Part shown: positions 1,228 through 37,976 of the stretch, one piece after another
Layout of the letters: each line of letters begins with the position of its first letter
Numbering within the stretch: position 1 is the stretch's first letter
Translations under genes and position numbers: made by a program
Notes under the pieces: generated by a model
What the model was told of the DNA's origin: nothing
The model's input: only the letters and a program-made list of their open reading frames with translations
Database searches by the model: none
IMG/VR virus record: IMGVR_UViG_3300031857_016701
Span: 1-64,000 of that record
From: a virus
Lineage: Duplodnaviria > Heunggongvirae > Uroviricota > Caudoviricetes
Strand: one strand, 5' to 3'
DNA: 64,000 nucleotides

Positions 1228-2238
1228 ATGGAACGTAAATTGGCTAGTGTTGTAAAGATTGTTGACATTCAACCTATTGTTGGTGCTGATGCCATTGTTG
1301 TGGCTAATGTCAAGGGTTGGAAAGTTGTGGTAAAGAAGGATGAATATAAGGTGGGTGACTTGGCTGTTTATTATGAAATTGACAGCTTCTTACCTATCCG
1401 ACCTCAGTTTGAATTCTTGCGTAAGAGTAGTTTCAAGCGTATGGGAACCGCTGAAGGATTTCGTCTTAAGACCATCAAGTTGCGTGGACAATTGAGTCAA
1501 GGTCTATTGACTCCAATTCCAGATGGTATAATTGATCCAAAGGAGGGTGATGATTTGACAGAAGCTCTTGATATTGTCAAGTATGAACCTCCTATTCCTG
1601 CTCAATTGGCTGGAAAGATCAAGGGTACATTTCCTAGTTTTATTCCAAAGACAGATGAAACTCGTATTCAGAACTTTGAAAGTGACATTGGTTTTGTGCC
1701 TGTTGGAGAACGAGTGTATATCACTGAGAAGTTGGATGGTACTAGTTTCACCTGTTACTTCAACAATGGTGTATTTGGTGTTTGTGGACGTAATTGGGAA
1801 TTGAGTGAAACCAATGACAATAGTCTATGGCGTATGGCTAATATGCTTGAGTTGAAGGAGAAGTTGACTAAGTATGGCAAGAACATTGCGATTCAGGGAG
1901 AATTGATTGGTGCTGGTATCAATGGTAATTTGTATGGATTGAATGACCACAAGTTGTTTTTCTTTACTGGTTATGACATTGATAAGGGTCGCCGTATGTT
2001 CTATGATGAATTGGAGTGGTTGTTGTTTAGATTTGAAGTGCCTATGGTACCTGTACTTGAAAAGTATGGATATGTATTACCCACTGAAAACTTGGTGGAT
2101 AATATGTTGAAGTATGCTGAAGGTAAGAGTGTGTTGAATATGGGTGTTGATCGTGAAGGTGTAGTTGTTCGTGGTCTTGAAAGGGAGTTTAGTTTCAAGG
2201 CTATTAACAATACGTATCTTCTTGGAAGTAAGGAATAA
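1228..2238 (+). CDS. ATP-dependent RNA ligase (Rnl2-like nucleotidyltransferase)
   Basis: KxDG motif I (ITEKLDGTSF). EGVVVRG motif IV-like. Size about 337 aa. Start trimmed to MERKLAS with an AAAGGA RBS; the track ORF begins at 1186. Confidence 0.55.
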   Translation: MERKLASVVKIVDIQPIVGADAIVVANVKGWKVVVKKDEYKVGDLAVYYEIDSFLPIRPQFEFLRKSSFKRMGTAEGFRLKTIKLRGQLSQGLLTPIPDGIIDPKEGDDLTEALDIVKYEPPIPAQLAGKIKGTFPSFIPKTDETRIQNFESDIGFVPVGERVYITEKLDGTSFTCYFNNGVFGVCGRNWELSETNDNSLWRMANMLELKEKLTKYGKNIAIQGELIGAGINGNLYGLNDHKLFFFTGYDIDKGRRMFYDELEWLLFRFEVPMVPVLEKYGYVLPTENLVDNMLKYAEGKSVLNMGVDREGVVVRGLEREFSFKAINNTYLLGSKE

Positions 2239-2242
2239 CTAA

Positions 2243-2278
2243 AAGGGAGGTATGTAATAGTACCTCCCTTATTTTTAT
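2243..2278 (+). terminator. rho-independent terminator
   Basis: AAGGGAGGTA-tgtaatag-TACCTCCCTT followed by ATTTTTAT. Confidence 0.75.
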
Positions 2279-2507
2279 GAAATATAAGATTAAGACTAAT
2301 GGTATTGGTATGTGTATGAGTGTACGGTGTGATTTTTATCAGACTTGTGCGAATAATAGTGTTAACATGTATTATAAGACCAAACGAAAGTTTGAACCTA
2401 TACTTGAAGATAATGATTGTTTAAGTTTTGGTAGTGGGAAGAATACTGAAGTTTATCAAGACAATTGTTATCCCAAGGTTTTGAAGAAAATTTATAATTA
2501 TTCTTAA
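2277..2507 (+). CDS. hypothetical small Cys-containing protein (76 aa)
   Basis: ORF only. Confidence 0.25.
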   Translation: MKYKIKTNGIGMCMSVRCDFYQTCANNSVNMYYKTKRKFEPILEDNDCLSFGSGKNTEVYQDNCYPKVLKKIYNYS

Positions 2508-2513
2508 AACATA

Positions 2514-2912
2514 TTGATTTCAATGAATCGAAAGATTATCGGTCGCACCGTTGACATTGCGATGGCGTTGTGTCCGTTGAATTTGGAACATCGTTGTAGC
2601 CACATTGCTTTTTTAATTCGGTGTGGTAAAATTGTTCATATCGGCACCAACAGTTGTAAGAGTCATCCAGAGACTTTGAAATATGATTATAAAGATCATC
2701 AAAAGGTTGGAATTCATGCTGAATTGAGTGTTTGTATGAAGAGTGGCAAGGAAAATCTTAAGGATTATTCTATGGTTGTGTTGCGTGTTGACCGCAAGGG
2801 AAATCTGGCTAATAGTAAGCCGTGTTGTGGTTGTCAGAGCGTCATCAAACAGTTCAATATTGGAGAAGTTTGGTACAGTGACTCAAAGGGCGAAGTGGTG
2901 AAAAATTCTTGA
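2514..2912 (+). CDS. dCMP/cytidine deaminase (zinc-binding CDA fold)
   Basis: HAE...PCxxC zinc-ligand motifs (HAELSV ... PCCGCQSV). Size 132 aa. Confidence 0.6.
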   Translation: MISMNRKIIGRTVDIAMALCPLNLEHRCSHIAFLIRCGKIVHIGTNSCKSHPETLKYDYKDHQKVGIHAELSVCMKSGKENLKDYSMVVLRVDRKGNLANSKPCCGCQSVIKQFNIGEVWYSDSKGEVVKNS

Positions 2913-2936
2913 CTTTAACCGAAATTCTGATATTAT
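2909..2936 (+). promoter_or_regulatory. sigma70-like early promoter (TTGACT-16-TATTAT)
   Basis: -35 and -10 hexamers with a 16 nt spacer, 12 nt upstream of the DNA ligase ATG. Confidence 0.45.
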
Positions 2937-2947
2937 TTTTATAAGAT

Positions 2948-4045
2948 ATGAAACTACCTATGTTATTCGCTCGTACAAATACGGGTGCTGTCCAAACTTG
3001 GATCATTGAAGTTGAAGGAAACAAGTACCGTACTCATTACGGTCAAATTGACGGTGCAATTCAAATTACAGAATGGACTCTTTGTGCTGGTAAAAATACC
3101 GGTAAGAAGAATGCTACATCTGCTGAAGATCAAGCTGTAAAAGAAGCCAAATCCACTTGGAAAAAGAAGAAGGAAAGTGGTTATTTTGAAAATATCAATG
3201 ATATTGATGGTATTGGTTTTACTGAACCAATGCTTGCTAAGAGTTACGATGATTATAAGGATGAATTGAAGTATCCAGTTTATAGTCAACCCAAGTTGGA
3301 TGGTATTCGTTGTGTTGTAAAGAAGGATGGTATGTGGAGTCGTAATGGTAAACCTATTGTTTCTGCACCGCATGTATTGGTTGCATTGAAACCTTTCTTT
3401 GATAAGTTTCCCAATGCAATTCTTGATGGTGAACTGTATGCTGATAAGTTTGCCAATGATTTTAATGCTATTTGTAGTTTGGTAAAGAAGACCAAGCCTA
3501 CACCGGAAGATTTGACTGAGAGTGCAAAGAATATTCAATATTGGGTATATGACTGGATTGTACAGAAGACTTTTAGTGATCGTAATGCTGACATTACTAC
3601 TTATCTTGTTAATAACAATGTGGTTCGTCGTGTTCCGACTCACCTTGTGGACACGATTACACATTTGAATGAGTTGTATGAAAAGTACATTGACGAAGGT
3701 TACGAAGGTCAGATGGTTCGTACCGATGGGCCATATGAAAACAAGCGCAGTAAATACCTACTCAAGCGTAAAGAATTTCAAGATAGTGAATTCAAAATTC
3801 TTGATATTGTTGAAGGAATAGGCAACAAGAGTGGTATGGCTGGATATATGGTATTCAAGAATCATAAGGGAATTGAGTTCCATAGTAATATCAAAGGCAC
3901 TCGGGAATATCTAAAAGAACTCTTGAAGAATAAAAATAAACTTATTGGAAAGAGTGCTACGGTGAAATATTTTAATCTTACACCTGGTGATGAACTGCCC
4001 AGATTTCCGTATGTGACAAACATTGACCGTGAAAGTTATGAATAA
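2948..4045 (+). CDS. ATP-dependent DNA ligase (compact T7/T4-type)
   Basis: KxDG adenylation motif (KLDGIRC). Size 365 aa. OB-domain C-terminus. Confidence 0.75.
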   Translation: MKLPMLFARTNTGAVQTWIIEVEGNKYRTHYGQIDGAIQITEWTLCAGKNTGKKNATSAEDQAVKEAKSTWKKKKESGYFENINDIDGIGFTEPMLAKSYDDYKDELKYPVYSQPKLDGIRCVVKKDGMWSRNGKPIVSAPHVLVALKPFFDKFPNAILDGELYADKFANDFNAICSLVKKTKPTPEDLTESAKNIQYWVYDWIVQKTFSDRNADITTYLVNNNVVRRVPTHLVDTITHLNELYEKYIDEGYEGQMVRTDGPYENKRSKYLLKRKEFQDSEFKILDIVEGIGNKSGMAGYMVFKNHKGIEFHSNIKGTREYLKELLKNKNKLIGKSATVKYFNLTPGDELPRFPYVTNIDRESYE

Positions 4046-9415: not shown

Positions 9416-9949
9416 ATGAATGTTTTGGATCATTTGAAGAGTTCGTCAGTTGACGATATTAAGTCCTATTGTAAGTCCACTTCCATTAACGCAGGTGTCG
9501 CAATGATGCATGTTAATGGTGACTTTAATCTATCTACTCTTGTTCGTAACGCCAATTTCTTTGGTTTTAAGGAAGCATTTTATGTAGGTGGTAGCAAGCA
9601 ATGGGATCGTCGTGGTACTGTTGGTACTCATCACTATACTGACTTAAAACATATTAAGACTGAAGAAGACTTTGTTACTTATATTAAGGATAATAATTAT
9701 ACACTAATTGCTGTAGAAAACAATATTCCCAAGTATAGTGACAAGACTGTATCTATCTTCAATCAATGGGTATTTACTGGTGTTGATAAGCCAATGTTTG
9801 TGTTTGGCGAAGAAAAGAGTGGATTGAGCGATTATATTCTTGACAACGCAGAATTTATCGTAACCATTCCAGCTTTTGGAAGCGTTCGTTCACTGAATGT
9901 TGGCACCACCAGCGGAATCGTGATGGCACATTACAGAAATAATTTTTGA
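9416..9949 (+). CDS. SpoU/TrmH-family (SPOUT) RNA 2'-O-methyltransferase
   Basis: SPOUT motifs: NxxxxxRxAxxFG (NLSTLVRNANFFG), FVFGEEKSGLS, SLNVGTTSGIVM. Confidence 0.6.
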   Translation: MNVLDHLKSSSVDDIKSYCKSTSINAGVAMMHVNGDFNLSTLVRNANFFGFKEAFYVGGSKQWDRRGTVGTHHYTDLKHIKTEEDFVTYIKDNNYTLIAVENNIPKYSDKTVSIFNQWVFTGVDKPMFVFGEEKSGLSDYILDNAEFIVTIPAFGSVRSLNVGTTSGIVMAHYRNNF

Positions 9950-9956
9950 AAAACCC

Positions 9957-9984
9957 TTGACGTTTTCCAAATCTAAGGTATAGT
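9957..9984 (+). promoter_or_regulatory. sigma70-like promoter (TTGACG-16-TATAGT) upstream of the NAD island
   Basis: Hexamers in a 114 nt intergenic gap before the NMNAT-Nudix gene. Confidence 0.4.
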
Positions 9985-10063: not shown

Positions 10064-11020
10064 ATGAAAGAAAAAGTTACAAAGGCTACTGATGTAGCTG
10101 TAATCGTTGGTCGTTTCCAGGTTAATGAACTCCATGAAGCTCATATTGACCTAATCACTTCAGTTCTGAATAAACATGACCGTGTGCTTTTGTTCTTGGG
10201 AAATAGCACTATCCGTAATACACTCAACAATCCTCTTGATTATCGTGCAAGACGTACAATGATTGCTGATAAGTTCCCCACAGTAGAGATTCATTATATC
10301 AATGATAATCCTTCTGATACTGCATGGACCAAGAATCTTGATAAGTTGATTGGTGAACAGTTGTTGCCAATGCAGACTGTTACACTATATGGTTCCCGTG
10401 ATAGTTTCTTGAAGTGTTATACTGGTAAGTACACTACTTGTGAGCTAGAAGCAACCACTTTTATTAGTGGTACAGAAGTTCGTCGTCGTGTATGTAACAA
10501 TTATCCTCCCACTGCAGATTATAGGGCTGGTATGATTGCTGCTACTGCATATCGTTTTCCTACAGCATTTCAGACTGTTGATATTGCTGTTGTAAATGAT
10601 AAGGGTGAACTGCTTTTGGCTCGTAAACCAGAAGAAAAGAAGTGGCGGTTTATTGGTGGATTTAGTGATCCTGCTTCTGTTTCTCTTGAAGAAGATGCTA
10701 AACGGGAAGTACAGGAAGAAGCTGGTGTAGAAGTTGGTAATATCACTTATCTTGGTTCTACACTTATCAATGACTGGCGTTACCGTGGAGAAATTGATAA
10801 GATTAAGACTGCATTGTTTGTTGCCAAGTATGTATTTGGCAAACCGGAGGGTGCAGATGATGTTGCAGAAGTGAAGTGGGTATCTATTAACAATTTGACT
10901 AAAAATGATATTGTTGAAACCCACCATGTTCTGATTGATATGTTCAATGAAAAGTTTGGAGCCAACCGGGAACTTCAGGAAAAGTTCTTCAAGCCAAATT
11001 TTGATGGAAAAATGCCTTGA
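10064..11020 (+). CDS. natV: bifunctional NMN adenylyltransferase / Nudix ADP-ribose pyrophosphatase (NatV/NadM-Nudix type)
   Basis: N-terminal nucleotidyltransferase with a GRFQ...H...H (HxGH-type) motif. C-terminal Nudix box (GGFSDPASVSLEEDAKREVQEEAGV). Confidence 0.75.
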   Translation: MKEKVTKATDVAVIVGRFQVNELHEAHIDLITSVLNKHDRVLLFLGNSTIRNTLNNPLDYRARRTMIADKFPTVEIHYINDNPSDTAWTKNLDKLIGEQLLPMQTVTLYGSRDSFLKCYTGKYTTCELEATTFISGTEVRRRVCNNYPPTADYRAGMIAATAYRFPTAFQTVDIAVVNDKGELLLARKPEEKKWRFIGGFSDPASVSLEEDAKREVQEEAGVEVGNITYLGSTLINDWRYRGEIDKIKTALFVAKYVFGKPEGADDVAEVKWVSINNLTKNDIVETHHVLIDMFNEKFGANRELQEKFFKPNFDGKMP

Positions 11021-11097
11021 CTTCGGGTGGAGTCTAGGGTAAAGTATTAAAAGTAAAGATTAAGGTACAGATAAAAATCATTACAGAAAGAAAAATT

Positions 11098-12495
11098 ATG
11101 AATAAAAACATTTGTTTGACTACGGATTCTTATAAGTTGAATCATTGGAATCAATATCCCAAGGGCACAGAAAAGGTTTATAGTTACTTTGAATGCCGTA
11201 AGGGATCTAAGTTTGCTGAAACTCCTTTCTTTGGACTTCAGTATATTATTAAGAACCACCTTGAAGGTGTTGTTGTGACCCGTCAGAAGATTGAGAATGC
11301 TGCTAAGGTGTGTAAGGCACATTTTGGTGATGAAAAGTATTTCAACCGTGAAGGTTGGGAATATGTTCTTAACAATTATGAAGGCAAGTTGCCTGTTGTT
11401 ATCAAGGCAGTTGAAGAAGGAACTGTTGTTCCTATCAACAATGTGCTTATGACTATTGAAAATACTGGCGGTGAAAAGACTGCTTGGTTGACCAATTTCC
11501 TTGAAACTATTTTGTCACAGGTTTGGTATCCTATTACAGTTGCTGCTTTGTCCCGTGAAGTGAAGGTTAATATCAAGGAATATCTTGATTTGACCAGTGA
11601 TGGTGGATTGCTTAACTTTGGTCTTCATGACTTTGGTTTCCGTGGAGCTAGCTCTTGGGAATCTGCTGGTATCGGGGGGGCTGCCCACTTGATTAACTTC
11701 TTGGGAACTGATACTGTTGTTGCTATGGAAGTGGCAATGAATTACTATAACGCTAATCTTGACGGTTTGGCATATAGTGTTGCTGCTACTGAACACTCTG
11801 TTATGACCGCACTTGGTAAGAATGGTGAAGAACAGGTTGTTGAGAATCTGTTGAATGAGTATCCTACTGGTATTCTGTCTGTTGTATCTGACAGCTATGA
11901 TATCTACAACTTTGTTGACAATATTGTTGGAAACAAGTTTAAGGTCCGTATTCTTGCCCGTGATGGTGTATTTGTAGTTCGTCCGGATTCTATTACTCCT
12001 ACTCACCCAACTCCTGAAGCAGAAATGGTTTGGATTATGCATAGTCTTTGGGATAACTTTGGTGGCACTATTAACAGCAAGGGTTATTGTGTTATCAATC
12101 CAAAGGTTCGTGTTCTTTGGGGTGACGGAATTGATATTGAAGGAATCAAGAAGATTCTGTATGCTGTTACCAAGGCTGGATTTGCAACTGAGAACATTGC
12201 TTGTTTTGGTATGGGTGGTGGATTGTTGCAGAAGGTTAACCGTGATACTCAGCGTTGTGCTTTTAAGTGTAGTGCTCAGTATCGTGATGGTCAGTGGTAT
12301 GACATTCAGAAGAATCCCAAGGATGTTTCCAAGGTTTCTAAGAAGGGTATTCTCAAGTTGATTAAGGTTGATGGTGAATTTGTTACTGTCAATGAAAATG
12401 AACCGGGAGAAGATTATTTGAAGGTTGTTTTTGAGAATGGTGTACTTGTCAAGGAAATTGATTTTGATACCGTTCGTAAAAATGCCGCTTTGTAA
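11098..12495 (+). CDS. nadV: nicotinamide phosphoribosyltransferase (NAMPT/NadV family; may act as a Namat-type enzyme)
   Basis: 465 aa with strong NAMPT-family similarity throughout (GLHDFGFRG, GTDT). Adjacent to the NMNAT gene. Confidence 0.8.
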   Translation: MNKNICLTTDSYKLNHWNQYPKGTEKVYSYFECRKGSKFAETPFFGLQYIIKNHLEGVVVTRQKIENAAKVCKAHFGDEKYFNREGWEYVLNNYEGKLPVVIKAVEEGTVVPINNVLMTIENTGGEKTAWLTNFLETILSQVWYPITVAALSREVKVNIKEYLDLTSDGGLLNFGLHDFGFRGASSWESAGIGGAAHLINFLGTDTVVAMEVAMNYYNANLDGLAYSVAATEHSVMTALGKNGEEQVVENLLNEYPTGILSVVSDSYDIYNFVDNIVGNKFKVRILARDGVFVVRPDSITPTHPTPEAEMVWIMHSLWDNFGGTINSKGYCVINPKVRVLWGDGIDIEGIKKILYAVTKAGFATENIACFGMGGGLLQKVNRDTQRCAFKCSAQYRDGQWYDIQKNPKDVSKVSKKGILKLIKVDGEFVTVNENEPGEDYLKVVFENGVLVKEIDFDTVRKNAAL

Positions 12496-12542
12496 TTGAC
12501 AACAAAAAGGTTTACGGTTATCCTTTAAAACCGTTTTTATTT

Positions 12543-12998
12543 ATGATTACAAATATTGATATAAACATTTTTGATTGTGACGCACACGGTATTATTCATC
12601 AAGCCAATTGTCAAAATACCATGCAAAGTGGTATTGCCAGACAAATTAGGGACAAGTATCCGGAGGCATATGAAGCAGATTGTAAAACAGTTGCGGGTGA
12701 TATTAAAAAACTGGGTACATTCAGTTGGGTAAAGACACATGATGATAAGTATATCTACAATTGTTATAGCCAATTTAGGTATGGAAAAGAACAACGTCAT
12801 ACAAATTATGAAGCAATTTATACTGGGTTGTCATCCATTAAAGACCACGCAAGCAGTATTGAGTTGACTTCTTTAAGTTTGCCATATAATATGGGATGCG
12901 CATTGGGTGGAGGGTCTTGGAATATTGTCAGAGCTATAATTCAAGATGTTTTTTATGATTCTGATATCAACCTTTTCATCTGCAAATATAACCCCTAA
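12543..12998 (+). CDS. macro-domain protein (ADP-ribose binding/processing)
   Basis: Macro signatures IIHQANCQNTMQSGIARQI and PYNMGCALGGGSWNIV (Gly-rich ADPR loop). Size 151 aa. Confidence 0.65.
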   Translation: MITNIDINIFDCDAHGIIHQANCQNTMQSGIARQIRDKYPEAYEADCKTVAGDIKKLGTFSWVKTHDDKYIYNCYSQFRYGKEQRHTNYEAIYTGLSSIKDHASSIELTSLSLPYNMGCALGGGSWNIVRAIIQDVFYDSDINLFICKYNP

Positions 12999-13001
12999 TT
13001 T

Positions 13002-13964
13002 ATGAAGACTATCAAGTTATTTTCAGGAACCAGTAATCTACCATTGGCACAGAAGATTTCACAAAATCTGAATGAACCTCTTGGTAAGATTTATCACCAC
13101 AAGTTTCCAAGTGGTGAAACCTATTGTCAATTCAAGGAAAATATCCGTGGCAGTGATGTATTTTTGATTCAAGGTATTACCAATCCAGCAAATGAAAACT
13201 TGATGGAATTGCTTGTAATGTCAGATGCTGCTAGACGGGCTAGTGCAGAACGTATTACTGCGGTAATTCCTTATTTTGGTTATGCTCGTCAAGACCGTAA
13301 GGATAAGAGCCGTGTTCCTATTACTGCTCGTCTTGTAATGGATTTGATTGCTACTGCTGGTATTGATAGGGTGGTGACTATGGATTTGCATAGTCCACAA
13401 GTGGGTGGATTTACTAATCTGCCATTTGATCATCTTACATTTGAACCAGTATTGAGTGAATATTTTAGGACCAAGTATCATTCATTAGATTTTAGGGATA
13501 ATGTTGTATTGATGGCACCGGATGTTGGTGCGGTTAAACGAGTGGAAAAGTATGCGGACTTGTTAAAGTGTGATTTTGGTTTTATCAGTAAGAAGCGTGT
13601 AAGTGATACCAAGGTAGAACTACAAAATGTTGTGGGCAATGTAAAAGATAAACATGTAGTTATTGTTGATGACCTCACTGAAAGTCTGGGAACAATGGTT
13701 CAAGCAGCAAAAGAATGTAAGAAACAAGGTGCTGTCAAAGTAACTTGTTCAGTAACTCATGGTTGTTTGACGGAGACAGGTATTCATAGATTGGCAGAGT
13801 CTATCAATGTAATTGATGAATTTATTCATAGTAATACAACAAATACATGGGGTAGTATTGGATTTAAGCCATCTAATGTTACTGAATTGGATGTAAGCAA
13901 CTTATTTGCTAAGGCTATTCGTAGTATCAACAAGAATGAAAGTGTAAGTGAATTATTCGTATGA
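13002..13964 (+). CDS. prs: ribose-phosphate pyrophosphokinase (Prs) homologue. The ribose-5-P loop is diverged, so it may be an ADP-ribose pyrophosphokinase (Adps-like).
   Basis: Near full-length colinearity with Prs (NLMELLVMSDAARRASAERITAVIPYFGYARQDRK, DLHSPQVGGF). The canonical DDxIDTGGT loop reads DDLTESLGT. Confidence 0.75.
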   Translation: MKTIKLFSGTSNLPLAQKISQNLNEPLGKIYHHKFPSGETYCQFKENIRGSDVFLIQGITNPANENLMELLVMSDAARRASAERITAVIPYFGYARQDRKDKSRVPITARLVMDLIATAGIDRVVTMDLHSPQVGGFTNLPFDHLTFEPVLSEYFRTKYHSLDFRDNVVLMAPDVGAVKRVEKYADLLKCDFGFISKKRVSDTKVELQNVVGNVKDKHVVIVDDLTESLGTMVQAAKECKKQGAVKVTCSVTHGCLTETGIHRLAESINVIDEFIHSNTTNTWGSIGFKPSNVTELDVSNLFAKAIRSINKNESVSELFV

Positions 13965-14491
13965 AATATATTGAAGCTCCTACTAAGTATAAAAATAAAC
14001 CAGGTATACCCTCTCTATTTTTAGGAGGTGGAATTAGTTCATGCAAAGATTGGCAATCCAAGTTGGTTGAAAAGTTGACGGATTATAATGTTACTATTTA
14101 TAATCCCCGTCGTAACGACTTTGATATCAACAATCCAAAAGCTAGTGAAGAACAAATCAAGTGGGAACATAAGTATCTACATGATGTAAATATTCTAGTG
14201 TTTTACTTTGCAGAAGAAACACTATGTCCAATTACATTGTTTGAATTGGGTGCTGCATTGGAACGAAACACTTATGCTACAATCAAACAAGATATTTTGG
14301 TATATTGTGAACCAGAGTATAAACGTAAGTTTGATGTAGAACTACAAATCAAGCTTGCAGTGAAAAATGCTAATCAACTATCTAAAAATAATGATGTTGC
14401 AGATGATTTGTGTGTATCATTTCATGATGATTATAGTGATTTTGTAGATGAATTGAAAGCAATTGTTGATATTGCTCAAGTTTATGTTTAA
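13961..14491 (+). CDS. nucleoside 2-deoxyribosyltransferase / DNPH1 (Rcl)-like N-glycosidase family protein
   Basis: FLGGGISS matches the YFxGxIxGG phosphate-binding motif. FELGAAL matches the catalytic YELG Glu motif of DNPH1/NDT. Size 176 aa. Confidence 0.5.
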   Translation: MKYIEAPTKYKNKPGIPSLFLGGGISSCKDWQSKLVEKLTDYNVTIYNPRRNDFDINNPKASEEQIKWEHKYLHDVNILVFYFAEETLCPITLFELGAALERNTYATIKQDILVYCEPEYKRKFDVELQIKLAVKNANQLSKNNDVADDLCVSFHDDYSDFVDELKAIVDIAQVYV

Positions 14492-14852: not shown

Positions 14853-15269
14853 ATGGAAAAACTAAATCGTAAAGGGTTTTTCTCCACCCTATTTGGAGGA
14901 ATCGCAGGTGTTGTTGCTGGTTCAACTGTTAAAGCATCAGAACCTATTGTACCAACACCACCAGTTGAAAATGTTGTTACTTGTGACAAATTGATATTCA
15001 CAACTAGTGATGGTGCTAGTTGTGTAATGCAGTTTAGAGACAATGATAACTTTGAAATACGTGTAAATAATAGTGAGAATATTTCAATCAATATTTGTTC
15101 ACCACTAAATAAACCAACTACAATCAAAGCAGAATCTTCACCAAACTCATATGAGTATAGACAACACTCATTTTATAATGAACCACGACAACGATTGGTA
15201 ATTGCTTCAAATGGTAATATTGGATTGGGCACTCATACTCCTACAGCAAAACTTGATATTTGTGGTTGA
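14853..15269 (+). CDS. hypothetical exported protein with an RK-FF / Gly-rich hydrophobic N-terminus
   Basis: NRKGFFSTLFGGIAGVVAGS leader. Confidence 0.3.
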   Translation: MEKLNRKGFFSTLFGGIAGVVAGSTVKASEPIVPTPPVENVVTCDKLIFTTSDGASCVMQFRDNDNFEIRVNNSENISINICSPLNKPTTIKAESSPNSYEYRQHSFYNEPRQRLVIASNGNIGLGTHTPTAKLDICG

Positions 15270-15519
15270 TAAGAATCATTGTTGTTATATAGTTATTTGT
15301 GGGGACAACACCCTCTATTGTGGTTATAGTAATGATGTTGAAAAACGAATTAGTAACCATAATAGGGGGTGTGGTGCTAAATATACTAAGACACGATTAC
15401 CAGTTAGATTAGTATATACAGAATGTTTTGATAGTAAGAGTGAAGCAATGAAGAGAGAGTATCAAATCAAACAATTGACCCGTCAACAAAAGTTAAAACT
15501 AATAAGTGAAAAACAATAA
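15202..15519 (+). CDS. small GIY-YIG nuclease (UPF0213/YhbQ-like). True start uncertain; a GTG at 15262 would remove the overlap.
   Basis: CYIVICGDNTLYCGYSNDVEKRISNHN is a GIY-YIG core, with a downstream conserved E (KSEAMKRE). Confidence 0.5.
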   Translation: MLQMVILDWALILLQQNLIFVVDKNHCCYIVICGDNTLYCGYSNDVEKRISNHNRGCGAKYTKTRLPVRLVYTECFDSKSEAMKREYQIKQLTRQQKLKLISEKQ

Positions 15520-16006
15520 AGCATTTACATTAATAGAATTGGTATTAGCCATAACCATATTGCTTGGTATTATTGGTGCAATTGTTATTAACTATGATAG
15601 TTTGGTGGGCAATACCAGATATTTTGAAGCTAGAGAAAACTTAAAGACACTATTGATTAATCTCAAACATCAATCAGCATTTCAACAAAAGGAATTTGAA
15701 CTTACATTTGATGAAAATTATAATATGTACAGTACATTTGACGATTTCTATTTATTGGATGCTGTCACAAATGACTTGAAGATACTTGAATCAAGTTCTA
15801 CCAAAATTGTGTTTTTTCTTGACGGAAGCGTACAAGAGAGTTATATTGTTACTAGCAACTTGGAGGGAACCATCACCAACAAATTTATTATTAATGTTAT
15901 TGGTGGGGTAAATTACGAGGGTACAACAAATATTGTTTTAGAAAAAAATGAATCTAATTTACAAACAGACCAACAACCAGAAGTTCCACGTATTGACTCC
16001 GAATAA
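15506..16006 (+). CDS. type IV pilin / pseudopilin-like protein with a class III (prepilin) signal
   Basis: N-terminus MKNNKA-FTLIELVLAITILLGIIGAIV: a basic leader, Phe+1, Glu+5, then a hydrophobic helix. Size 166 aa. Confidence 0.6.
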   Translation: MKNNKAFTLIELVLAITILLGIIGAIVINYDSLVGNTRYFEARENLKTLLINLKHQSAFQQKEFELTFDENYNMYSTFDDFYLLDAVTNDLKILESSSTKIVFFLDGSVQESYIVTSNLEGTITNKFIINVIGGVNYEGTTNIVLEKNESNLQTDQQPEVPRIDSE

Positions 16007-16673: not shown

Positions 16674-17816
16674 ATGAATAGTTACGAAGAACAATATATC
16701 AATCTACTTTCAGAAATCTACAACGGGGGCACTTATTCCAAAAATAGAACCGGAATAAACACTCGTAAAATTTGGGGGGCTCAAATTCATGTAGATTTAT
16801 TGCATGAAGGATTTCCTCTACTTACCACAAAGAAAATGCACTGGAAGAGTGTAGTGCATGAACTATTGTGGATGATTAAAGGAGATACTAACATTCAGTA
16901 TCTTCTAAAGAATGGTGTTACATTCTGGACAGAATGGCCCTATCAAAAGTATCTTAACCATTGCAAAACACTCACTGAACCCGATTATGATGTTCATATC
17001 GAGGATCTTGAAAAAAATTGTGTGCGTGAAATGACACAAAAAGAATTTGAACAAGAAATCATCAATAACGATGAATTTGCCAAAAAGTGGGGTAGCATTG
17101 GACAATATGGTTATGGTGGAATGTGGAGAAACTTTCCACATCGTATTAACCCAATTGGTCAAAATAATGGTGATCACATGATCGTCAAAGGGTGGTCTGT
17201 TGAAACCGTGGATCAACTTAAAAATGCAATTAATGAACTAAACACTAATCCAGATAGTCGCCGGATTATCATCACTGCATGGCATCCGTATCATAGTAAT
17301 AACCGAGAAGATGCTCTATTGCCAGCCTGTCACAATTATATTCAGTTTGGTACTGAAGAATTGACACTAGAAGAAAGATTTAATATTTTTTCAAATGGAT
17401 GGAATGTAGAAGAATCAAAAAATGAGTGGAATAAAAATGGATTTACAGATTATGATTCCCTTCTTACAGATCATTATATTCCAAAATATCGTTTGAATTG
17501 TTACTTTAATATGAGAAGTAATGATGTACCACTTGGTTTACCATACAACATCGCTTTTTATGCTCTATTTACTCACTTGATGGCTCATTGTTTAAATATG
17601 ATTCCAAGTCAATTAGTTTATAGTGGTGCTGATGTTCATATCTATGAAAACCAACAAGAAGGAATTGTAGAACAATTGACTAGAACTCCCGGTAAATTGC
17701 CTAAGTTAGTTCTTAAACCAGGATGTCCTACCAATTTGTTTGATATTAAGTTTGACCACATTGATATTGTGGACTATAATCCTCAATCACACATTAAAAT
17801 GCCTGTAGCAGTATGA
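16674..17816 (+). CDS. thyA: thymidylate synthase (ThyA family) carrying two large insertions (380 aa)
   Basis: RTGINTRKIWG...FPLLTTKK...HELLWMIKGDTN. Active-site LPACH Cys. RSNDVPLGLPYNIAFYAL, with Asn at the dUMP-specificity position. Confidence 0.7.
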   Translation: MNSYEEQYINLLSEIYNGGTYSKNRTGINTRKIWGAQIHVDLLHEGFPLLTTKKMHWKSVVHELLWMIKGDTNIQYLLKNGVTFWTEWPYQKYLNHCKTLTEPDYDVHIEDLEKNCVREMTQKEFEQEIINNDEFAKKWGSIGQYGYGGMWRNFPHRINPIGQNNGDHMIVKGWSVETVDQLKNAINELNTNPDSRRIIITAWHPYHSNNREDALLPACHNYIQFGTEELTLEERFNIFSNGWNVEESKNEWNKNGFTDYDSLLTDHYIPKYRLNCYFNMRSNDVPLGLPYNIAFYALFTHLMAHCLNMIPSQLVYSGADVHIYENQQEGIVEQLTRTPGKLPKLVLKPGCPTNLFDIKFDHIDIVDYNPQSHIKMPVAV

Positions 17817-17998: not shown

Positions 17999-18201
17999 AA
18001 ACAAATTACTACGTTATAATTTTAGATCAAAACAACAATCTATGTGTTGATTCATTAGGCGAATGTTTCAGTGAAGACGCTTCATTAACTGAAGCAAATA
18101 AGTATCGTAAGAAACATAAAGCAGATGTACTCTGGACTTGCACAGAAAGTGCATTAAAAACACTAAAAGAATCACTTAAAAAATATGATAACCAACTATA
18201 A
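17995..18201 (+). CDS. hypothetical protein (68 aa)
   Basis: ORF. Confidence 0.3.
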   Translation: MKTNYYVIILDQNNNLCVDSLGECFSEDASLTEANKYRKKHKADVLWTCTESALKTLKESLKKYDNQL

Positions 18202-18565
18202 TTTATTTCTCGATGACAACCGCATTCCAACGAATGTCACTTGGGTTAATATTCCAAAAGATCAACATTACTCTGTGGTAAGAAATTATCAAGAGTTTGT
18301 TGACTTGATTACACTTCGTGGACTTCCTAAGTTTGTAACTTATGACCATGATTTGTCAGACTGCCACTATGGTCATGGTTTGAATAACGATGATATTCCA
18401 TATGACAAGTATACAGAAAAGACTGGATATGATTGTGCTAAATGGCTTGTGGAATATTGTATGAATAAGGGTGTTAAACATCCACCATATATGGTACATT
18501 CTATGAATCCCGTGGGTAAACAAAATATTATTAGTTATGTGGAATCGTATAACAAATCTGTTTAA
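18185..18565 (+). CDS. hypothetical small Rossmann/receiver-like domain protein (126 aa)
   Basis: Conserved-looking FLDDNR ... YDHDLSD ... DCAKWLVE ... HSMNPVG pattern. Confidence 0.3.
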   Translation: MITNYNLFLDDNRIPTNVTWVNIPKDQHYSVVRNYQEFVDLITLRGLPKFVTYDHDLSDCHYGHGLNNDDIPYDKYTEKTGYDCAKWLVEYCMNKGVKHPPYMVHSMNPVGKQNIISYVESYNKSV

Positions 18566-21246: not shown

Positions 21247-22023
21247 TTATTTTAAATTTAGACATTTAAATCCACGATATAATTTTATATGTCCATTTAT
21301 TAATTGTGATAAACATTTTTTATTTAAATTATAATTTTTTCTTAAATTATACATAGTATCTTTTATAATATCTTTTGTATTTTGATTTTCTAAAATATAT
21401 ATTGTTTTATCATAAGATGAATTTTTTGATCCTCTTCTTTGTTTACTGAATAATTCTTTTGTTTCATTTGAATGTTTTTTACCAAAATTAGGTGCATTTT
21501 TACCTATCATTTCCATTCTTTTATTTTTTAATTTTTGTTTATGGTTTTTACTTAATTTTTTGCCTTTATGTAATTTTGAAATTTTTTCTTTCATTTCAAT
21601 TGTCCAATCCACTCTTCCGGCCAAAAATGTTTTATTATAACATAAATTTTTATTTAATTTAGCTATATTTAAATAATTTTGTTCTGTTTTTAATAGATCA
21701 GATTCTTTACAATATTGGATAATAATCCATTCAAAATTATCTTCACCATATTTATTCCACGCATTTTGAAGATGTAAATTGTGGTGTATATTTTTGTTTA
21801 AATAATATTTATGTTTATACCATCTTCCATAATTACCGTTGATGTTTTTAGAACTGCCAATATAATATTTCCCATCAATTTTACTAATTATTTTATAAAT
21901 TCCTATAGATTTTATTATATCGTTCTCTTGCTTTAAATCTTTCTTTTTCCACATTTTTCCAATAAGATTGCATTCTATATTTTCTATATCGGTTGAGTTT
22001 TTGATCTTTAGTTTCATTTTCAT
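21247..22023 (-). CDS. GIY-YIG homing endonuclease (I-TevI/Seg-like)
   Basis: GIYKIISKIDGKYYIGSS ... NIHHNLHLQNAWNKYGEDNF GIY-YIG core. Lys-rich C-terminal DNA-binding region. Extremely AT-rich gene. Confidence 0.7.
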   Translation of the reverse strand: MKMKLKIKNSTDIENIECNLIGKMWKKKDLKQENDIIKSIGIYKIISKIDGKYYIGSSKNINGNYGRWYKHKYYLNKNIHHNLHLQNAWNKYGEDNFEWIIIQYCKESDLLKTEQNYLNIAKLNKNLCYNKTFLAGRVDWTIEMKEKISKLHKGKKLSKNHKQKLKNKRMEMIGKNAPNFGKKHSNETKELFSKQRRGSKNSSYDKTIYILENQNTKDIIKDTMYNLRKNYNLNKKCLSQLINGHIKLYRGFKCLNLK

Positions 22024-22428: not shown

Positions 22429-23070
22429 ATGAATACTGTTGCGAATAAATTAATCTGTTTAAATCTAAATGCTAGTTGGCAACCTGTAGGGTTTAAGACC
22501 GTTAAAGATGCTATTGTGGATCTTTGTGGTTCTGAATCTAATGGTAAACCGTCTACAATGGCATTGGATATTGAATATGAATTGGATGAAAATGGACAAC
22601 CCATCTTTGATGAAGCAAAGAGTATGAATCCAGTTTCATGGGATGAATGGATGATGTTGCCTATTAGACCGTGGGATTTGGCTATAAATAGTCCTACTAG
22701 AAGCATTAGGGTTCCAACTGTTATCATCGCTACAAATTTCAACAAGATGCCTATTAAGTCATTTAAAGGAAAGCCTAGCAAAGATGGTATTTGGAATAGA
22801 GATCAAGGCATTTGTCAATATACTGGTAAGAAGTTGTCAAAAGATCAATCTACTATTGACCATGTAATTCCTCGTAGTAAAGGTGGTGGAGACACTTGGA
22901 CTAATATGGTTGTATGTGACAAAACTCTTAATAGTAAAAAAGGCAATAAACTAAACAGTGAAATGGGGTTGAAGTTAAGAAAAGATCCAATTGAACCAAA
23001 TCCAATGCCAGTGTCTGCTTTGATTAGAGAAGCAAAACATCACACTTGGAAACATTTTTTAACTATTTAA
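22429..23070 (+). CDS. HNH endonuclease
   Basis: DHVIPRSKGGGDTWTNMVVCDKTLNSKKGNK HNH motif. Confidence 0.7.
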   Translation: MNTVANKLICLNLNASWQPVGFKTVKDAIVDLCGSESNGKPSTMALDIEYELDENGQPIFDEAKSMNPVSWDEWMMLPIRPWDLAINSPTRSIRVPTVIIATNFNKMPIKSFKGKPSKDGIWNRDQGICQYTGKKLSKDQSTIDHVIPRSKGGGDTWTNMVVCDKTLNSKKGNKLNSEMGLKLRKDPIEPNPMPVSALIREAKHHTWKHFLTI

Positions 23071-23269: not shown

Positions 23270-23716
23270 CTAATCCAATTTATGAACAGTAGATTTATTT
23301 GACATATCTTTAATAGATACATAACCTTTTTTCTTTTTGTAATCTTCTAAAGCTGCACTTAAGGCTTCATGTGCGAGTACACTGCAATGAATTTTCACTG
23401 GAGGCAATCCACCTAAAGCATTTACGATATCATCATTGCTAAAACATCTTTCCAATTCATCAATTGATTTACCCTTGATTAGTTCAGTAGCCATAGATGA
23501 AGCAGCAATTGCACTACCACAACCAAAAGTCTTAAATCTAGCATCCATTACAGTTCCAGTAATATCATCAATTTTAAGACTAATTTTCATTATATCACCA
23601 CATGCTGCAGCACCAACTTCACCAACTGCATCTGCATCTTTTATATCACCCATATTACGTGGGTTCATAAAATGATCCATTACCGTTTTATTATATAGTG
23701 TATAAGATTCACTCAT
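23270..23716 (-). CDS. iscU: IscU/NifU-type Fe-S cluster assembly scaffold
   Basis: NPRNMG, GAAACGD, FKTFGCGSAIASS and HC motifs (three conserved Cys plus LPPVK). Confidence 0.8.
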   Translation of the reverse strand: MSESYTLYNKTVMDHFMNPRNMGDIKDADAVGEVGAAACGDIMKISLKIDDITGTVMDARFKTFGCGSAIAASSMATELIKGKSIDELERCFSNDDIVNALGGLPPVKIHCSVLAHEALSAALEDYKKKKGYVSIKDMSNKSTVHKLD

Positions 23717-34340: not shown

Positions 34341-34911
34341 ATTTCTTTTGTGCCATTTCTCTAATTATTTTACCGATTTCCTTTTCTTGTGGTGTACGAT
34401 AATCTACAACTTCTTGTTGTGGAGTAGCCATTAAATTATATGGTTCTGCTTTTGATTCTGGTCCCATAAATGATGGTTTTACTGGTAACTTGTCGTCATC
34501 ATCAATGTTCAACATATGTAATTTACTGTAGTATTTGTTATCTTCTTTAAGATTTCTTACTACTAATTCTTTAGCCAAGTCTTTTCTTTTAAACACCATT
34601 TTCTTCAATTCATATTGTAAACCGGCTAAAACTTCATCTGGTGTTACTTTGTATTTGATGTCTTGAACATCTTGTTCATATTGACCTGGGTCATATGTGG
34701 ATTTATTATCATAATCATCAGGTGGTGGTGTACTGATATCACTTGCAGAACCAGCTATAGATGGCGCATATTTGAATGAATTAGGATTTTGAGATACATC
34801 TGGTGAACTATATGTATCCAAACCAGACGCACCGCCTAATCCACCTTGTATATAGGATTGACCTGTATACATTCTATCTCCCAAATCATTTTCATTTATA
34901 GTTTTCGACAT
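34315..34911 (-). CDS. hypothetical protein (198 aa)
   Basis: ORF. Confidence 0.35.
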   Translation of the reverse strand: MSKTINENDLGDRMYTGQSYIQGGLGGASGLDTYSSPDVSQNPNSFKYAPSIAGSASDISTPPPDDYDNKSTYDPGQYEQDVQDIKYKVTPDEVLAGLQYELKKMVFKRKDLAKELVVRNLKEDNKYYSKLHMLNIDDDDKLPVKPSFMGPESKAEPYNLMATPQQEVVDYRTPQEKEIGKIIREMAQKKYEKRFPKA

Positions 34912-34951
34912 AACTATAAATATAAGTAAACAACAGTTAATATCTATTATT

Positions 34952-35656: not shown

Positions 35657-35660
35657 ATTA

Positions 35661-36353: not shown

Positions 36354-36356
36354 AGA

Positions 36357-37238: not shown

Positions 37239-37278
37239 GATGTTTTACAATTTAAATTAAATAAAATTAAGATATTGT

Positions 37279-37947: not shown

Positions 37948-37976
37948 ATATATAAATTAATTATATTATTTTTTAT

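Follow-up and report, generated by a model that had tools for sequence, protein, structure and literature searches.

NARP2, the closest described counterpart of the locus analysed here, consists of the Nampt NadV and the bifunctional Nmnat/Nudix protein NatV of Vibrio phage KVP40. It does away with both Thoeris and DSR2 defence; consumption of PRPP is named as its drawback (Osterman et al., bioRxiv 10.1101/2024.02.11.579819). A second pathway, NARP1, combines Adps with Namat, and in NARP1-AP of Vibrio phage Gary these are accompanied by the Macro phosphatase Adpp, a validated phage ADPR-1''-phosphate phosphatase that has hitherto been described only with NARP1; aRES is defeated by NARP2 without a phosphatase (bioRxiv 10.64898/2026.01.28.702374). 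A route from ADPR through Rib-P, PRPP and NMN to NAD was proposed for two kinds of bacterial operon in the NrtR regulon, prs-nadV and nadM(Nudix)-nadV (Rodionov et al. 2008, PMC2330246).

The window analysed here, the whole 64,000-nucleotide stretch of IMG/VR record IMGVR_UViG_3300031857_016701 (positions 1 to 64,000), derives from an uncultured T4-like phage. Its early-gene region carries a predicted NARP2 pair together with a putative genuine PRPP synthetase, an Adpp-type Macro protein and an NDT-fold enzyme, a set that could regenerate NAD+ from the products of its degradation. With a probability of roughly 0.7, we regard this as an extended form of NARP2 that serves NAD+ salvage and reconstitution, its enzyme activities and counter-defence role all being predicted from homology. 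The NARP2 core is the known part, whereas its combination with Prs, Macro and NDT-like genes has not been described as such; the initial annotation had suspected as much, and no description of the five-gene composition was found in the literature searched.

Like NARP2, the cluster places a Nampt-type NadV beside an NMNAT-Nudix protein, lacks Adps, and is predicted to convert nicotinamide and PRPP via NMN to NAD+; the canonical Prs, the Adpp-type Macro and the NDT-like protein are extra, none of them belonging to NARP2 as defined. As in NARP1-AP, an Adpp-homologous Macro is set among NAD+ reconstitution genes, but its partners are Nampt, Nmnat-Nudix and Prs rather than Adps and Namat, and ADPR would need Nudix splitting and re-activation by Prs instead of direct pyrophosphorylation. 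NARP1 likewise rebuilds NAD+ from cleavage products with Prs-fold and Nampt-fold proteins, yet the route predicted here runs through free ribose-5-P and PRPP, not ADPR-PP. The cluster resembles the NrtR-regulon operons in coupling both a dedicated Prs paralogue and NadM-Nudix to NadV. However, those operons are cellular, stand under the ADPR-responsive repressor NrtR and occur as separate types in different bacteria, whereas the phage holds all three genes together, plus Macro and NDT-like.

Organisation of the cluster

The five contiguous, co-oriented ORFs (10064-14491, + strand) were recovered at exactly the coordinates first listed, and Pfam, NCBIfam and PHROGs concurred on the domain assignments of all five. 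Together with two neighbours, they are:

9416..9949, + strand: SpoU/TrmH-family 2'-O-methyltransferase (PF00588, E 1.4e-22), directly upstream of the cluster
10064..11020, + strand: NatV, predicted divergent NMNAT (N-terminal) and Nudix hydrolase (C-terminal), 318 aa (NUDIX PF00293, E 4e-14)
11098..12495, + strand: NadV, predicted nicotinamide phosphoribosyltransferase (Nampt type), 465 aa (NAMPT_N and NAPRTase)
12543..12998, + strand: Macro-domain protein of the Adpp family, predicted ADP-ribose-1''-phosphate phosphatase, 151 aa (PF01661, E 1e-7)
13002..13964, + strand: Prs, predicted class I ribose-phosphate diphosphokinase (PRPP synthetase), 320 aa (NF002320, 354 bits; cutoff 297)
13961..14491, + strand: NDT-like protein (NDT/DNPH1/'DrHyd' superfamily), 176 aa (Nuc_deoxyri_tr2 PF15891, E 9e-21)
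18185..18565, + strand: cREC_REC (cyclic-phosphate processing receiver) protein (PF20274, E 1.2e-18, above cutoff)

Successive spacers between the first four ORFs measure 77 bp, 47 bp and 3 bp. At the Prs/NDT-like junction, a 4-bp ATGA overlap lays the NDT-like start codon over the Prs stop codon, and Macro, Prs and NDT-like are thus tightly packed. The exact five-gene order was seen again in at least six independent metagenome contigs with an identical Macro protein, which rules out an assembly artefact.

The SpoU/TrmH gene occurs in L115-L119 and is absent upstream of NatV in other close relatives; it co-travels with the Macro-bearing genotype and probably lies outside the pathway. The cREC_REC gene, 3.7 kb downstream of the contiguous island, occupies a corresponding place in close relatives, and its product is a possible accessory of the cluster, cREC being counted among the domains that process ADPr derivatives (Iyer et al. 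2022). Nucleotide-synthesis genes (DHFR/ThyA) adjoin the cluster and an RNA ligase gene lies nearby. A large glycan-synthesis island in the window encodes NAD-dependent epimerase/dehydratases.

The NatV and NadV core

The matches of NatV to NMNAT/NadM-Nudix proteins were weak but co-linear. NadM-Nudix NCBIfam models spanned both halves at 61.7 bits (cutoff 449), and both Francisella NadM-Nudix (2qjt/2r5w) and archaeal NMNAT (1f9a) aligned co-linearly with the protein. It retains the motifs GRFQ..H-x-(A/G)-H, SGTEVR and REx2EE, and shares 22-25% identity with annotated NadM-Nudix proteins. Its identity reached 41% with Tunturi_5 gp218 and 40% with a protein of megaphage LR756502, both of which adjoin NadV. 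In a departure from NARP2 itself, a tblastn search with NatV at E <= 1e-3 did not detect KVP40-type NatV. These data assign NatV to a divergent subfamily of NMNAT-Nudix proteins, so that the ADPR specificity of its Nudix domain is not readable from sequence.

NadV scored 544.6 bits with NF006629 (cutoff 405), matched phrog_448 (E 2e-154) and was 42-48% identical to NadV of NARP2-type phages, including KVP40-like Vibrio phages. The adjacency of NatV and NadV recurs in the same order in Tunturi_5, BUCT-ZZ01 and LR756502. Judged by homology, the pair corresponds to KVP40 NARP2, a known phage counter-defence pathway, as had been proposed.

The PRPP synthetase

The initial annotation called the fourth gene 'Prs/Adps-like'; the Prs part of that label stood and the Adps part did not. 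The protein contains Pribosyltran_N, Pribosyltran and Pribosyl_synth domains, and over its full length it aligns at similar scores (229-255 bits) with PRPS from Thermus, human, B. subtilis and E. coli. Also present is the alpha11-alpha12 module at the C-terminus; its loss is the defining feature of Adps. By these features it is unambiguously assigned to the canonical PRPP synthetases, and the cluster is therefore not predicted to mix NARP1 and NARP2 chemistry. A hybrid in which the Prs homologue acts as Adps (ADPR pyrophosphokinase) and NadV as Namat, joining ADPR-PP and nicotinamide directly, could draw on the homology between Adps and Prs and on the formation of some NAD+ from ADPR-PP by KVP40 Nampt in vitro. 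It is already disfavoured, and we consider it highly improbable, given the passed Prs cutoff, the full-length PRPS similarity, the retained module and an identity of only ~27% to the PRPS-like genes of phages such as BPS15Q2, Arno162 and Wc4, which are taken as Adps-type. Moreover, NadV falls with Nampt-type enzymes and is partnered by Nmnat, which speaks against a Namat role.

The Macro protein

A Macro domain (PF01661) had been recognised from the outset, and a more specific relative, itself already known, is Adpp. The protein matched phrog_335 'phosphatase' (E 7e-44) and shared 33% identity with the validated Adpp of Vibrio phage Gary (E 3e-23), 40% with a further Macro associated with NARP1 and 43% with the phi92-like/JohannJBalmer Macro, which directly follows a PRTase-type gene. 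The best PDB matches were TARG1/OARD1 and the DarG macro domain, the match to Poa1p being weak. Homology thus clearly points to an Adpp-type protein. The defeat of aRES by NARP2 alone is a point against a strict need for Adpp.

The NDT-like protein and its linkage to NAD genes

The fold of the fifth protein is confidently of the NDT/DNPH1/MilB type and matches nucleotide N-glycosidases, among them the ribonucleotide-specific MilB. Within the NDT/DNPH1/MilB superfamily of nucleoside(tide) N-glycosyl hydrolase-transferases ('DrHyd'), PF15891 (PDB 4mcj) is a separate family with invariant motifs of its own (NPRR, QIxWE and YxRxxD) and no characterised member.

Among 52 de-replicated viral lineages, 23 (44%) carried the NDT-like gene within 10 kb of NadV, NatV or Prs, against a rough estimate of a few percent expected by chance for a random large-phage gene. 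The shortest spacings were 31 bp to NadV (L171) and 69 bp to Prs (L157), and clusters holding the gene include NadV..Nudix-NMNAT-PncA-like-hyp-NDT in Phosso and Nudix-Nudix-NDT-NadV in L033. The other 29 of the 52 lineages had no NAD gene nearby, and in some a dCMP deaminase gene adjoins NDT. The link is weak in cellular genomes, where 80 NDT loci yielded one NadV, three Prs and eight Nudix neighbours. None of NDT, DNPH1 and MilB is known for a recurrent phage-specific association with NadV, NatV, Prs and NADAR, and NDT linkage to NadV, NatV or Prs does not figure in a 2022 survey of NAD/ADP-ribose domains in viruses. The recurrent linkage of this family to the latter three genes in phages is the new finding.

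Predicted pathway

The loop from ADPR through ribose-5-P, PRPP and NMN to NAD+ put forward in the initial annotation is chemically coherent and has the bacterial precedent cited above (PMC2330246). The cluster is most likely a PRPP-self-sufficient extension of NARP2 that would recycle both ADPR and ADPR-1''P. Going by the characterised homologues from KVP40, NadV would join nicotinamide and PRPP to NMN, which the NMNAT domain of NatV would adenylate to NAD+. Prs would make PRPP from ribose-5-phosphate, freeing the pathway from host PRPP, reliance on which is considered the cost of NARP2. The NatV Nudix domain may cleave ADP-ribose to AMP and ribose-5-phosphate, and through this step ADPR released by SIR2, TIR and SEFIR NADases would feed Prs. 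RES-type NAD+ phosphorylases, aRES among them, produce ADPR-1''-P; the Adpp-type Macro would strip off its 1''-phosphate and thereby admit this product to the same loop. The least certain step is that of the NDT-like protein, in all likelihood an N-glycosidase with a phosphorylated ribonucleotide as its substrate; for example, it may split AMP or another NMP into base and ribose-5-P as a supply for Prs, to which its gene would be translationally coupled. The net reaction would be ADPR (or ADPR-1''P) + nicotinamide + 2 ATP -> NAD+.

The genes might instead boost metabolism generally, supplying NAD+ and PRPP for replication and for phage NAD(P)-dependent enzymes irrespective of any NAD+-depleting defence in the host. 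NARP2 raises NAD+ even in defence-free cells, PRPP is also a nucleotide precursor, and both the epimerase/dehydratases of the glycan-synthesis island and the adjoining DHFR/ThyA would fit such a role. Although compatible with reconstitution, it is unlikely as the explanation: the Adpp-type Macro, Nudix, cREC and, in sister lineages, NADAR are predicted to act on NAD+ cleavage products and not on precursors, so recovery from NADase attack would fit better than simple overproduction.

Variation among relatives

Close relatives keep NatV-NadV...Prs...NDT, with PTH2 and small ORFs in the Macro slot; the Macro gene was absent from all seven of the closest IMG/VR relatives. Prs is missing from two lineages and the NadV allele is swapped in one relative, a homing endonuclease and allele swaps marking rapid turnover of the region. 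In sister lineages, Prs (67-72% identity), NDT (50-53%) and Macro (69-71%) share one neighbourhood with Nudix and NADAR genes. The five genes are thus no fixed module or conserved unit, and the absences of Macro and Prs indicate that the full loop is dispensable.

Such turnover also suits a partly coincidental neighbourhood, a mosaic early-gene hot spot in which only NatV and NadV, with or without Prs, would serve NAD+ synthesis. Macro would then join cREC, RNA ligase, SpoU and PTH2-type genes in clearing ADPR-1''P or Appr>p left over from RNA repair, and NDT-like would act in (deoxy)nucleotide metabolism with DHFR, ThyA and dCMP deaminase. The co-variation of SpoU with Macro, the presence of RNA ligase, cREC and SpoU genes in the window and of SpoU, Thg1 and PTH2 nearby on sister contig L026, and the NDT lineages that have dCMP deaminase or lack NAD neighbours agree with this, as does the abundance of Adpp-like Macro proteins (2957 phage records, far more than NARP1 carriers). 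The adjoining DHFR/ThyA and nearby RNA ligase suggest a possible part for some members in nucleotide metabolism or RNA repair. We nonetheless find this partial coincidence doubtful, since Macro lies between NadV and Prs, ending 3 bp before the latter, the NDT gene begins within the Prs stop, experiments have established a role for Adpp homologues alongside NAD+ reconstitution genes, and the 44% linkage of viral NDT lineages far exceeds the few percent roughly estimated. The preferred reading, NAD+ reconstitution, draws on what was observed directly: gene order, family membership, motif conservation and linkage that recurs in other phages.

Promoter-like sites and hairpin

A weak hairpin after nadV had been noted; its 6-bp stem and following U-run are present (12514-12534), but its stability is no better than that of shuffled sequence (z = -0.04). 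Three promoter-like sites precede genes of the cluster:

9957..9984, + strand: sigma70-like promoter candidate upstream of NatV, TTGACG-N16-TATAGT (10/12 consensus positions)
11017..11045, + strand: second sigma70-like promoter candidate, upstream of NadV
12496..12534, + strand: promoter-like site TTGACA-N17-TATCCT, overlapping the hairpin in the NadV-Macro spacer

The site at 9957 is real but not unique as the island's own promoter, similar sites standing before NadV and Macro; there are several promoter-like sites and no single island promoter. The strict motif TTGAC-N16-18-TANAGT occurs four times in the window against 0.88 expected, the 9957-9984 site being one of the four.

Layout and genomic setting of the island

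NAD+ depletion is among the commonest bacterial strategies against phages. Phages are known to answer it with NARP1 (Adps plus Namat), NARP1-AP (NARP1 plus Adpp), NARP2 (NadV plus NatV) and NARP3, each with a stated weakness. The best-supported reading of the five-gene island is that it encodes an extended NARP2. The predicted genes are as follows.

10064-11020, + strand: ORF 1, NatV, 318 aa; NUDIX domain PF00293 (E 4e-14) and a weak NMNAT/NadM-Nudix match
11098-12495, + strand: ORF 2, NadV, 465 aa; NAMPT_N and NAPRTase domains; NF006629, 544.6 bits (cutoff 405)
12543-12998, + strand: ORF 3, Macro, 151 aa; PF01661 (E 1e-7); phrog_335 (E 7e-44)
13002-13964, + strand: ORF 4, Prs, 320 aa; three PRPS domains; NF002320, 354.3 bits (cutoff 297)
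13961-14491, + strand: ORF 5, NDT-like, 176 aa; PF15891 Nuc_deoxyri_tr2 (E 9e-21)

The initial annotation had placed five contiguous, co-oriented genes here, and all were recovered at exactly these positions. Every domain it had named was borne out by Pfam, NCBIfam and PHROGs, the NMNAT-Nudix match lying far below the NCBIfam equivalog cutoffs. From NatV to the NDT-like gene, the ORFs were separated by spacers of 77 bp, 47 bp and 3 bp and then joined by a 4-bp ATGA overlap, so that Macro, Prs and the NDT-like gene are tightly packed. The G+C content across 10-14 kb was 36.5-38.3%, compared with 29-33% in the flanks. The window also carries genes for a T4-type family B DNA polymerase, RNA and DNA ligases, a SNF2 helicase, DHFR/ThyA and homing endonucleases, and is a portion of a large dsDNA phage genome; no tRNA genes were found in it. 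When the island was searched by Megablast, none of 50,697 phage records matched, and none of these genomes was near-identical to the window. The nearest isolate by PolB was Microcystis phage Mel-JY01 (45%); among cultured phages, a close relative is lacking.

A sigma70-like promoter at 9957 and a weak hairpin after nadV had been proposed to frame the island. The promoter-like site is genuine (10 of 12 positions), but NadV and Macro each have a comparable one in front of them, at 11017 and 12496. Against an expectation of 0.88, the window holds four copies of the strict motif TTGAC-N16-18-TAnAGT; two lie directly before NatV and NadV, and the remaining two are found upstream of other genes in the correct orientation. 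The sites look like a set of early-type promoters rather than one island promoter. The hairpin is present, with a 6-bp stem and a U-run, but its stability does not exceed that of shuffled sequence (z = -0.04), and a terminator scan detected none after nadV or after NDT. A single island promoter with a terminator was ruled out by the several promoter-like sites, the missing terminator and the shuffle-like hairpin.

NadV and NatV form a NARP2-type core

Clade calls for NadV (Nampt or Namat) and for Prs or Adps were based on best hits, curated thresholds and architecture. NadV fell in the Nampt clade, as opposed to the Adps-associated Namat clade: it passed NF006629, and its best phage matches were the NadV proteins of NARP2-type phages, with 42% identity to KVP40-like Vibrio phages and 46-48% to RsoM2USA and a megaphage. 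The Nmnat homologue that NARP2 pairs with NadV in the same phage is represented by the adjoining 318-aa NatV, in which the NMNAT region is N-terminal and the Nudix domain C-terminal. In KVP40, Nmnat is fused to a Nudix domain (NARP preprint, bioRxiv 10.1101/2024.02.11.579819).

NatV was co-linear in alignment with Francisella NadM-Nudix (2qjt/2r5w) and archaeal NMNAT. It keeps GRFQ...H-x-(A/G)-H (with a 2-residue insertion), SGTEVR and the Nudix REx2EE core; past the Nudix box it reads DWRYRGE, compared with DYPDRSVRGR in Francisella NadM-Nudix, the REx2EE core being intact. Nevertheless, it fails the NCBIfam NadM-Nudix equivalog thresholds (best NF003787, 61.7 bits against a cutoff of 449). 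Because architecture and motifs match while the thresholds are failed, NatV probably represents a separate, divergent NMNAT-Nudix subfamily that is predicted to work like NadM-Nudix. Homologues were found by tblastn in only 28 phage records, comprising a closer group at 32-41% (Tunturi_5, megaphages) and a farther group at 22-25% (annotated NadM/ADPR-pyrophosphatase proteins); no KVP40-type NatV was detected in this tblastn search. A homologue lies directly 5' of NadV in Tunturi_5, BUCT-ZZ01 and LR756502.

The fourth gene encodes a canonical Prs

The fourth gene had been described as Prs/Adps-like, but by curated threshold and C-terminal module it is a canonical class I Prs. It passes TIGR01251 (339 bits, cutoff 113), holds all three Pfam PRPS domains, and aligned end to end with PDB PRPS structures from Thermus, human, B. 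subtilis and E. coli (229-255 bits). The alignment spans the C-terminus, with query residues 4-319 matching 3-307 of a 316-aa PRPS chain. Adps is distinguished as a PRPS-like enzyme without the C-terminal alpha11-alpha12 module and with a remodelled PP loop (PMC13586617). The window protein retains the alpha11-alpha12 module and so differs from the Adps of NARP1. An Adps identity was therefore ruled out by the Prs cutoffs, the full-length PRPS alignment and the retained module, and NARP1-like chemistry through Adps was rejected as an explanation of the island. The 'prs' of Microcystis phage MaAM05 was set aside as a precedent for phage Prs because its neighbours look bacterial (dinB, trpG, gsiC).

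The Macro protein is an Adpp homologue

Macro is homologous to the Adpp of Vibrio phage Gary (BLASTP, 33% identity over 135 aa, nearly full length, E 3e-23) and shares 40% identity (E 6e-30) with a second NARP1-associated Macro protein. Gary Adpp, whose ADPR-1''-phosphate phosphatase activity has been validated experimentally, extends NARP1 to counter the aRES defence (bioRxiv 10.64898/2026.01.28.702374). The best solved-structure matches of the window protein were TARG1/OARD1 and the DarG macro domain (E ~4e-7), and that to Poa1p was weak (E ~0.3-0.6). The protein falls in the TARG1/DarG/Poa1p-like class; from its homology to Adpp it is a candidate ADPR-1''-phosphate phosphatase. The gene sits between the Nampt-type NadV and the canonical Prs; no Adps was found near it, nor an Adps+Namat operon within two genes. 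A homologue with 43% identity lies directly 3' of a PRTase-type gene in the phi92-like phage JohannJBalmer.

Gene turnover around the NadV-Prs interval

Seven IMG/VR contigs were close relatives (80-94% amino-acid identity). Their gene order is NatV, NadV, a 117-aa ORF, PTH2, a 77-aa ORF, Prs, a HAD-like ORF of 140 aa and NDT, and Macro is absent from all seven. Prs is missing from two close-relative lineages. At 1950-3326 of the compared loci L005/L014, the NadV allele is only 47% identical to that of the window, although NatV and Prs on either side keep 92-93% identity; one gene of the pathway seems to have been replaced there by recombination. Within another relative, a GIY-YIG homing endonuclease (L007 7174-8055) splits PTH2 inside the NAD cluster. 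Given this turnover among close relatives, the NadV-Prs interval is a variable slot, filled by Macro in the window genotype.

The HAD-like ORF of the relatives was located as follows (140-155 aa; L-numbers are compared loci or contigs).

L004 3238-3660: HAD-like ORF
L026 6381-6842: HAD-like ORF
L027 9355-9822: HAD-like ORF
L029 9540-10004: HAD-like ORF

In at least four lineages this conserved ORF lies directly 5' of the NDT-like gene, and the two often overlap. It carries DLHDT in place of DxDGT and matches PDB 2obb and phrog_1238. The window lacks it, and Prs there adjoins NDT directly.

The exact Macro protein of the window was indexed in 57 metagenome-collection blocks. All six of the longest contigs carrying it showed the order NatV-NadV-Macro-Prs-NDT, and five had SpoU upstream; the Macro-bearing genotype is real and widespread. 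The SpoU gene occupies the following position.

9416-9949: SpoU/TrmH-family 2'-O-methyltransferase, directly 5' of NatV only in the Macro-bearing genotype

In distant sister lineages (contigs of 188-229 kb), Prs (67-72%), NDT (50-53%) and a Macro orthologue (69-71%) share one neighbourhood. Macro is there located downstream of NDT, and the neighbourhood also holds NUDIX, NADAR and DSPc-like genes as separate units. One sister contig opens mid-gene in a NadV with 90% identity to that of the window.

The NDT-like family and its linkage to NAD genes

The NDT-like protein passes the Pfam threshold of PF15891 and has a Rossmann-like NDT fold (structure model pLDDT 94.3). The motifs GGGI, NPRR, QIxWE, ETLCPITLFELG and YxRxxD are invariant, as is E95 in PITLFELG among 24 NDT-like sequences. 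These motifs would suit a glutamate nucleophile and a ligand that bears a phosphate, and E95 would, by motif resemblance, be the counterpart of the NDT/DNPH1 nucleophile. A literature search on PF15891 yielded nothing, and a 2022 survey of viral NAD/ADPr domains, in which Prs is unmentioned, states that viruses hold only ARC-type members of the NDT/DNPH1 superfamily.

The scan of IMG/VR for this family retrieved 80 loci, which were reduced to 52 lineages by de-replication at 70% identity.

Genes within 10 kb of the NDT-like gene in 52 lineages
NadV, NatV or Prs (any): 23 of 52
NadV: 16 of 52
NatV: 13 of 52
Prs: 13 of 52
NADAR: 11 of 52

Of medium and jumbo phages, 22-33% carry NadV, from which a random gene would be expected to have NadV within 10 kb in a few percent of cases, as a rough estimate. 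The tightest spacings to NDT were 31 bp for NadV (locus L171), 69 bp for Prs with 209 bp for NadV (L157), and 252 bp for NadV (L169). Independent gene arrangements, most of them in named phages, also link NDT to NAD genes. Sinorhizobium jumbo phage Phosso has the order NadV...Nudix-NMNAT-(isochorismatase/PncA-like)-hyp-NDT, NadV and NatV lie ~6 kb from NDT in Brevundimonas phage Kikimora, and NatV lies ~11 kb from it in Erythrobacter phage L02. A 211-kb contig carries cREC-NADAR...NMNAT-like-Nudix-Nudix-NDT-NadV...Macro. In Tunturi_5, gp225 (L002 4953-8741; 1262 aa, annotated Nudix) adjoins the portal gene ~6 kb from NatV/NadV and has an N-terminal NDT-like domain with 41% identity to the window protein; it may be a virion-packaged polyvalent protein joining NDT-like and Nudix activities. 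Among 80 cellular PF15891 loci, Nudix was nearby in 8, Prs in 3 and NadV in 1, a weak association.

The Phosso 'hydrolase' between NMNAT and NDT (L003 3866-4513) is isochorismatase/PncA-like (PF00857, E 1.5e-7). PncA-like matches accompany NadV, NatV and NDT in three IMG/VR lineages, an odd companion for a Nampt-type NadV.

The island could also be a partly coincidental mosaic, in which Macro, cREC, SpoU, PTH2 and RNA ligase serve RNA repair and NDT serves nucleotide metabolism. The variable NadV-Prs slot speaks for such a mosaic, as do the 2957 phage records that carry the Macro family and the NDT lineages without NAD genes nearby: 29 of the 52 have no NadV, NatV or Prs in their vicinity, and dCMP deaminase stands beside NDT in two lineages. 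We consider this rather unlikely.

A proposed route for NAD+ reconstitution

In an extended NARP2, NadV would combine nicotinamide and PRPP into NMN, from which the NMNAT domain of NatV would form NAD+ with ATP, as described for the KVP40 enzymes in the NARP preprint (bioRxiv 10.1101/2024.02.11.579819). The Nudix domain of NatV would cleave ADPR into AMP and ribose-5-phosphate, and Prs would convert the latter with ATP into PRPP. An ADPR-to-Rib-P-to-PRPP loop was proposed in 2008 for bacterial prs-nadV and nadM-nadV operons (PMC2330246). Since the cost of NARP2, according to its authors, is PRPP consumption (bioRxiv 10.1101/2024.02.11.579819), a co-encoded Prs would address that cost. Macro would convert ADPR-1''P into ADPR, on the basis of Gary Adpp (bioRxiv 10.64898/2026.01.28.702374). 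RES-type enzymes make ADPR-1''P, and an Adpp homologue beside Nudix and Prs suggests a second ADPR-1''P recycling route besides NARP1-AP.

A further protein could act ahead of Macro.

18185-18565: cREC_REC protein, PF20274 (E 1.2e-18), just past ThyA

This stand-alone domain protein is conserved in close relatives, where its relative position is unchanged. It could turn ADPR-1'',2''-cyclic phosphate into ADPR-1''P and may join Macro in acting on ADPR cyclic phosphates or the 1''-phosphate; a role in RNA repair fits equally well.

The NDT-like protein is proposed, with low confidence, to be a ribonucleotide N-glycosidase whose cleavage would supply ribose-5-phosphate to Prs. A role in feeding Prs is suggested by its MilB-type fold, invariant arginines, translational coupling to Prs and genomic association. 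The precedent here is MilB, which hydrolyses ribonucleotides. Since AMP is released as a by-product by Prs and by the Nudix domain alike, it is a candidate substrate. More broadly, the NDT-like protein may be a new catalytic part of phage NAD+ reconstitution and, together with Prs, form a widespread 'PRPP-self-sufficient' extension of NARP2, a tentative reading to which we give a probability of about 0.3. It would free ribose-5-phosphate for Prs from AMP, other NMPs or an ADPR-derived nucleotide, or alternatively destroy an NAD+-derived immune signal. If this holds, then with Nudix and an Adpp-type Macro, NAD+ could be rebuilt from ADPR, ADPR-1''P or plain nucleotides without host PRPP. That the island is a general NAD+/PRPP booster seems unlikely, and would be compatible with an extended NARP2.

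The NatV+NadV core, the coupling of Prs and nadV in bacteria, and Adpp with NARP1 are already known. In the literature searched, no description was found of NARP2 combined with a canonical Prs in phages, of an Adpp homologue in a NARP2 and Prs context, or of a recurrent PF15891 link to phage NAD+ salvage/ADPR-processing genes, and the NARP literature yielded no mention of a genuine phage-encoded Prs as a PRPP remedy. A genuine phage Prs in a NARP2 cluster is an obvious remedy for PRPP drain, and the island thereby offers a rationale for phage-encoded Prs. The NDT-NAD linkage provides a concrete candidate for a new enzymatic step, open to direct testing with purified proteins. If confirmed, these additions would improve the prediction of anti-defence content from phage genomes and supply parts for engineered phages tolerating NAD+-depleting hosts.

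Other features of the window and its relatives

SpoU, the PTH2 of the slot and an RNA ligase hint at a tRNA-repair/tRNA-modification theme interleaved with the NAD genes.

1186-2238: RNA ligase, window

In the sister contig L026 (12106-13519), SpoU occurs with a Thg1-like gene and PTH2, ~5 kb from NDT.

ThyA (window 16674-17816) is unusually long, with 380 aa against a 266-position Pfam model. Its identity across relatives (L004-L010, L015) is 28-42%, compared with 64-87% for the adjoining DHFR, which suggests allele replacement or insertions. An ORF at 15506-16006, whose N-terminus (MKNNKAFTLIELVLAI...) is type IV pilin-like, shows 85-88% conservation among relatives. Homing-endonuclease-type genes were found at 15202-15519, 21247-22023 and 22429-23070, the kinds represented being a small GIY-YIG overlapping the preceding ORF, GIY-YIG+NUMOD3 and HNH.

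A glycan-biosynthesis island extends over 34000-50200 (minus strand), with further parts at 23713-24879 and 58398-62294, and its extent is unusual for a phage. Its G+C content is very low, at 21-25% compared with ~30% elsewhere. Besides tandem glycosyltransferases (GT1, Fringe-like/GT31, GT10-like, Anp1/GT2, GT25), it encodes two FkbM methyltransferases, NAD-dependent epimerase/dehydratases and a GDP-mannose 4,6-dehydratase, as well as a fusion protein in which an NTP-transferase is joined to a phosphoheptose-isomerase-like domain.
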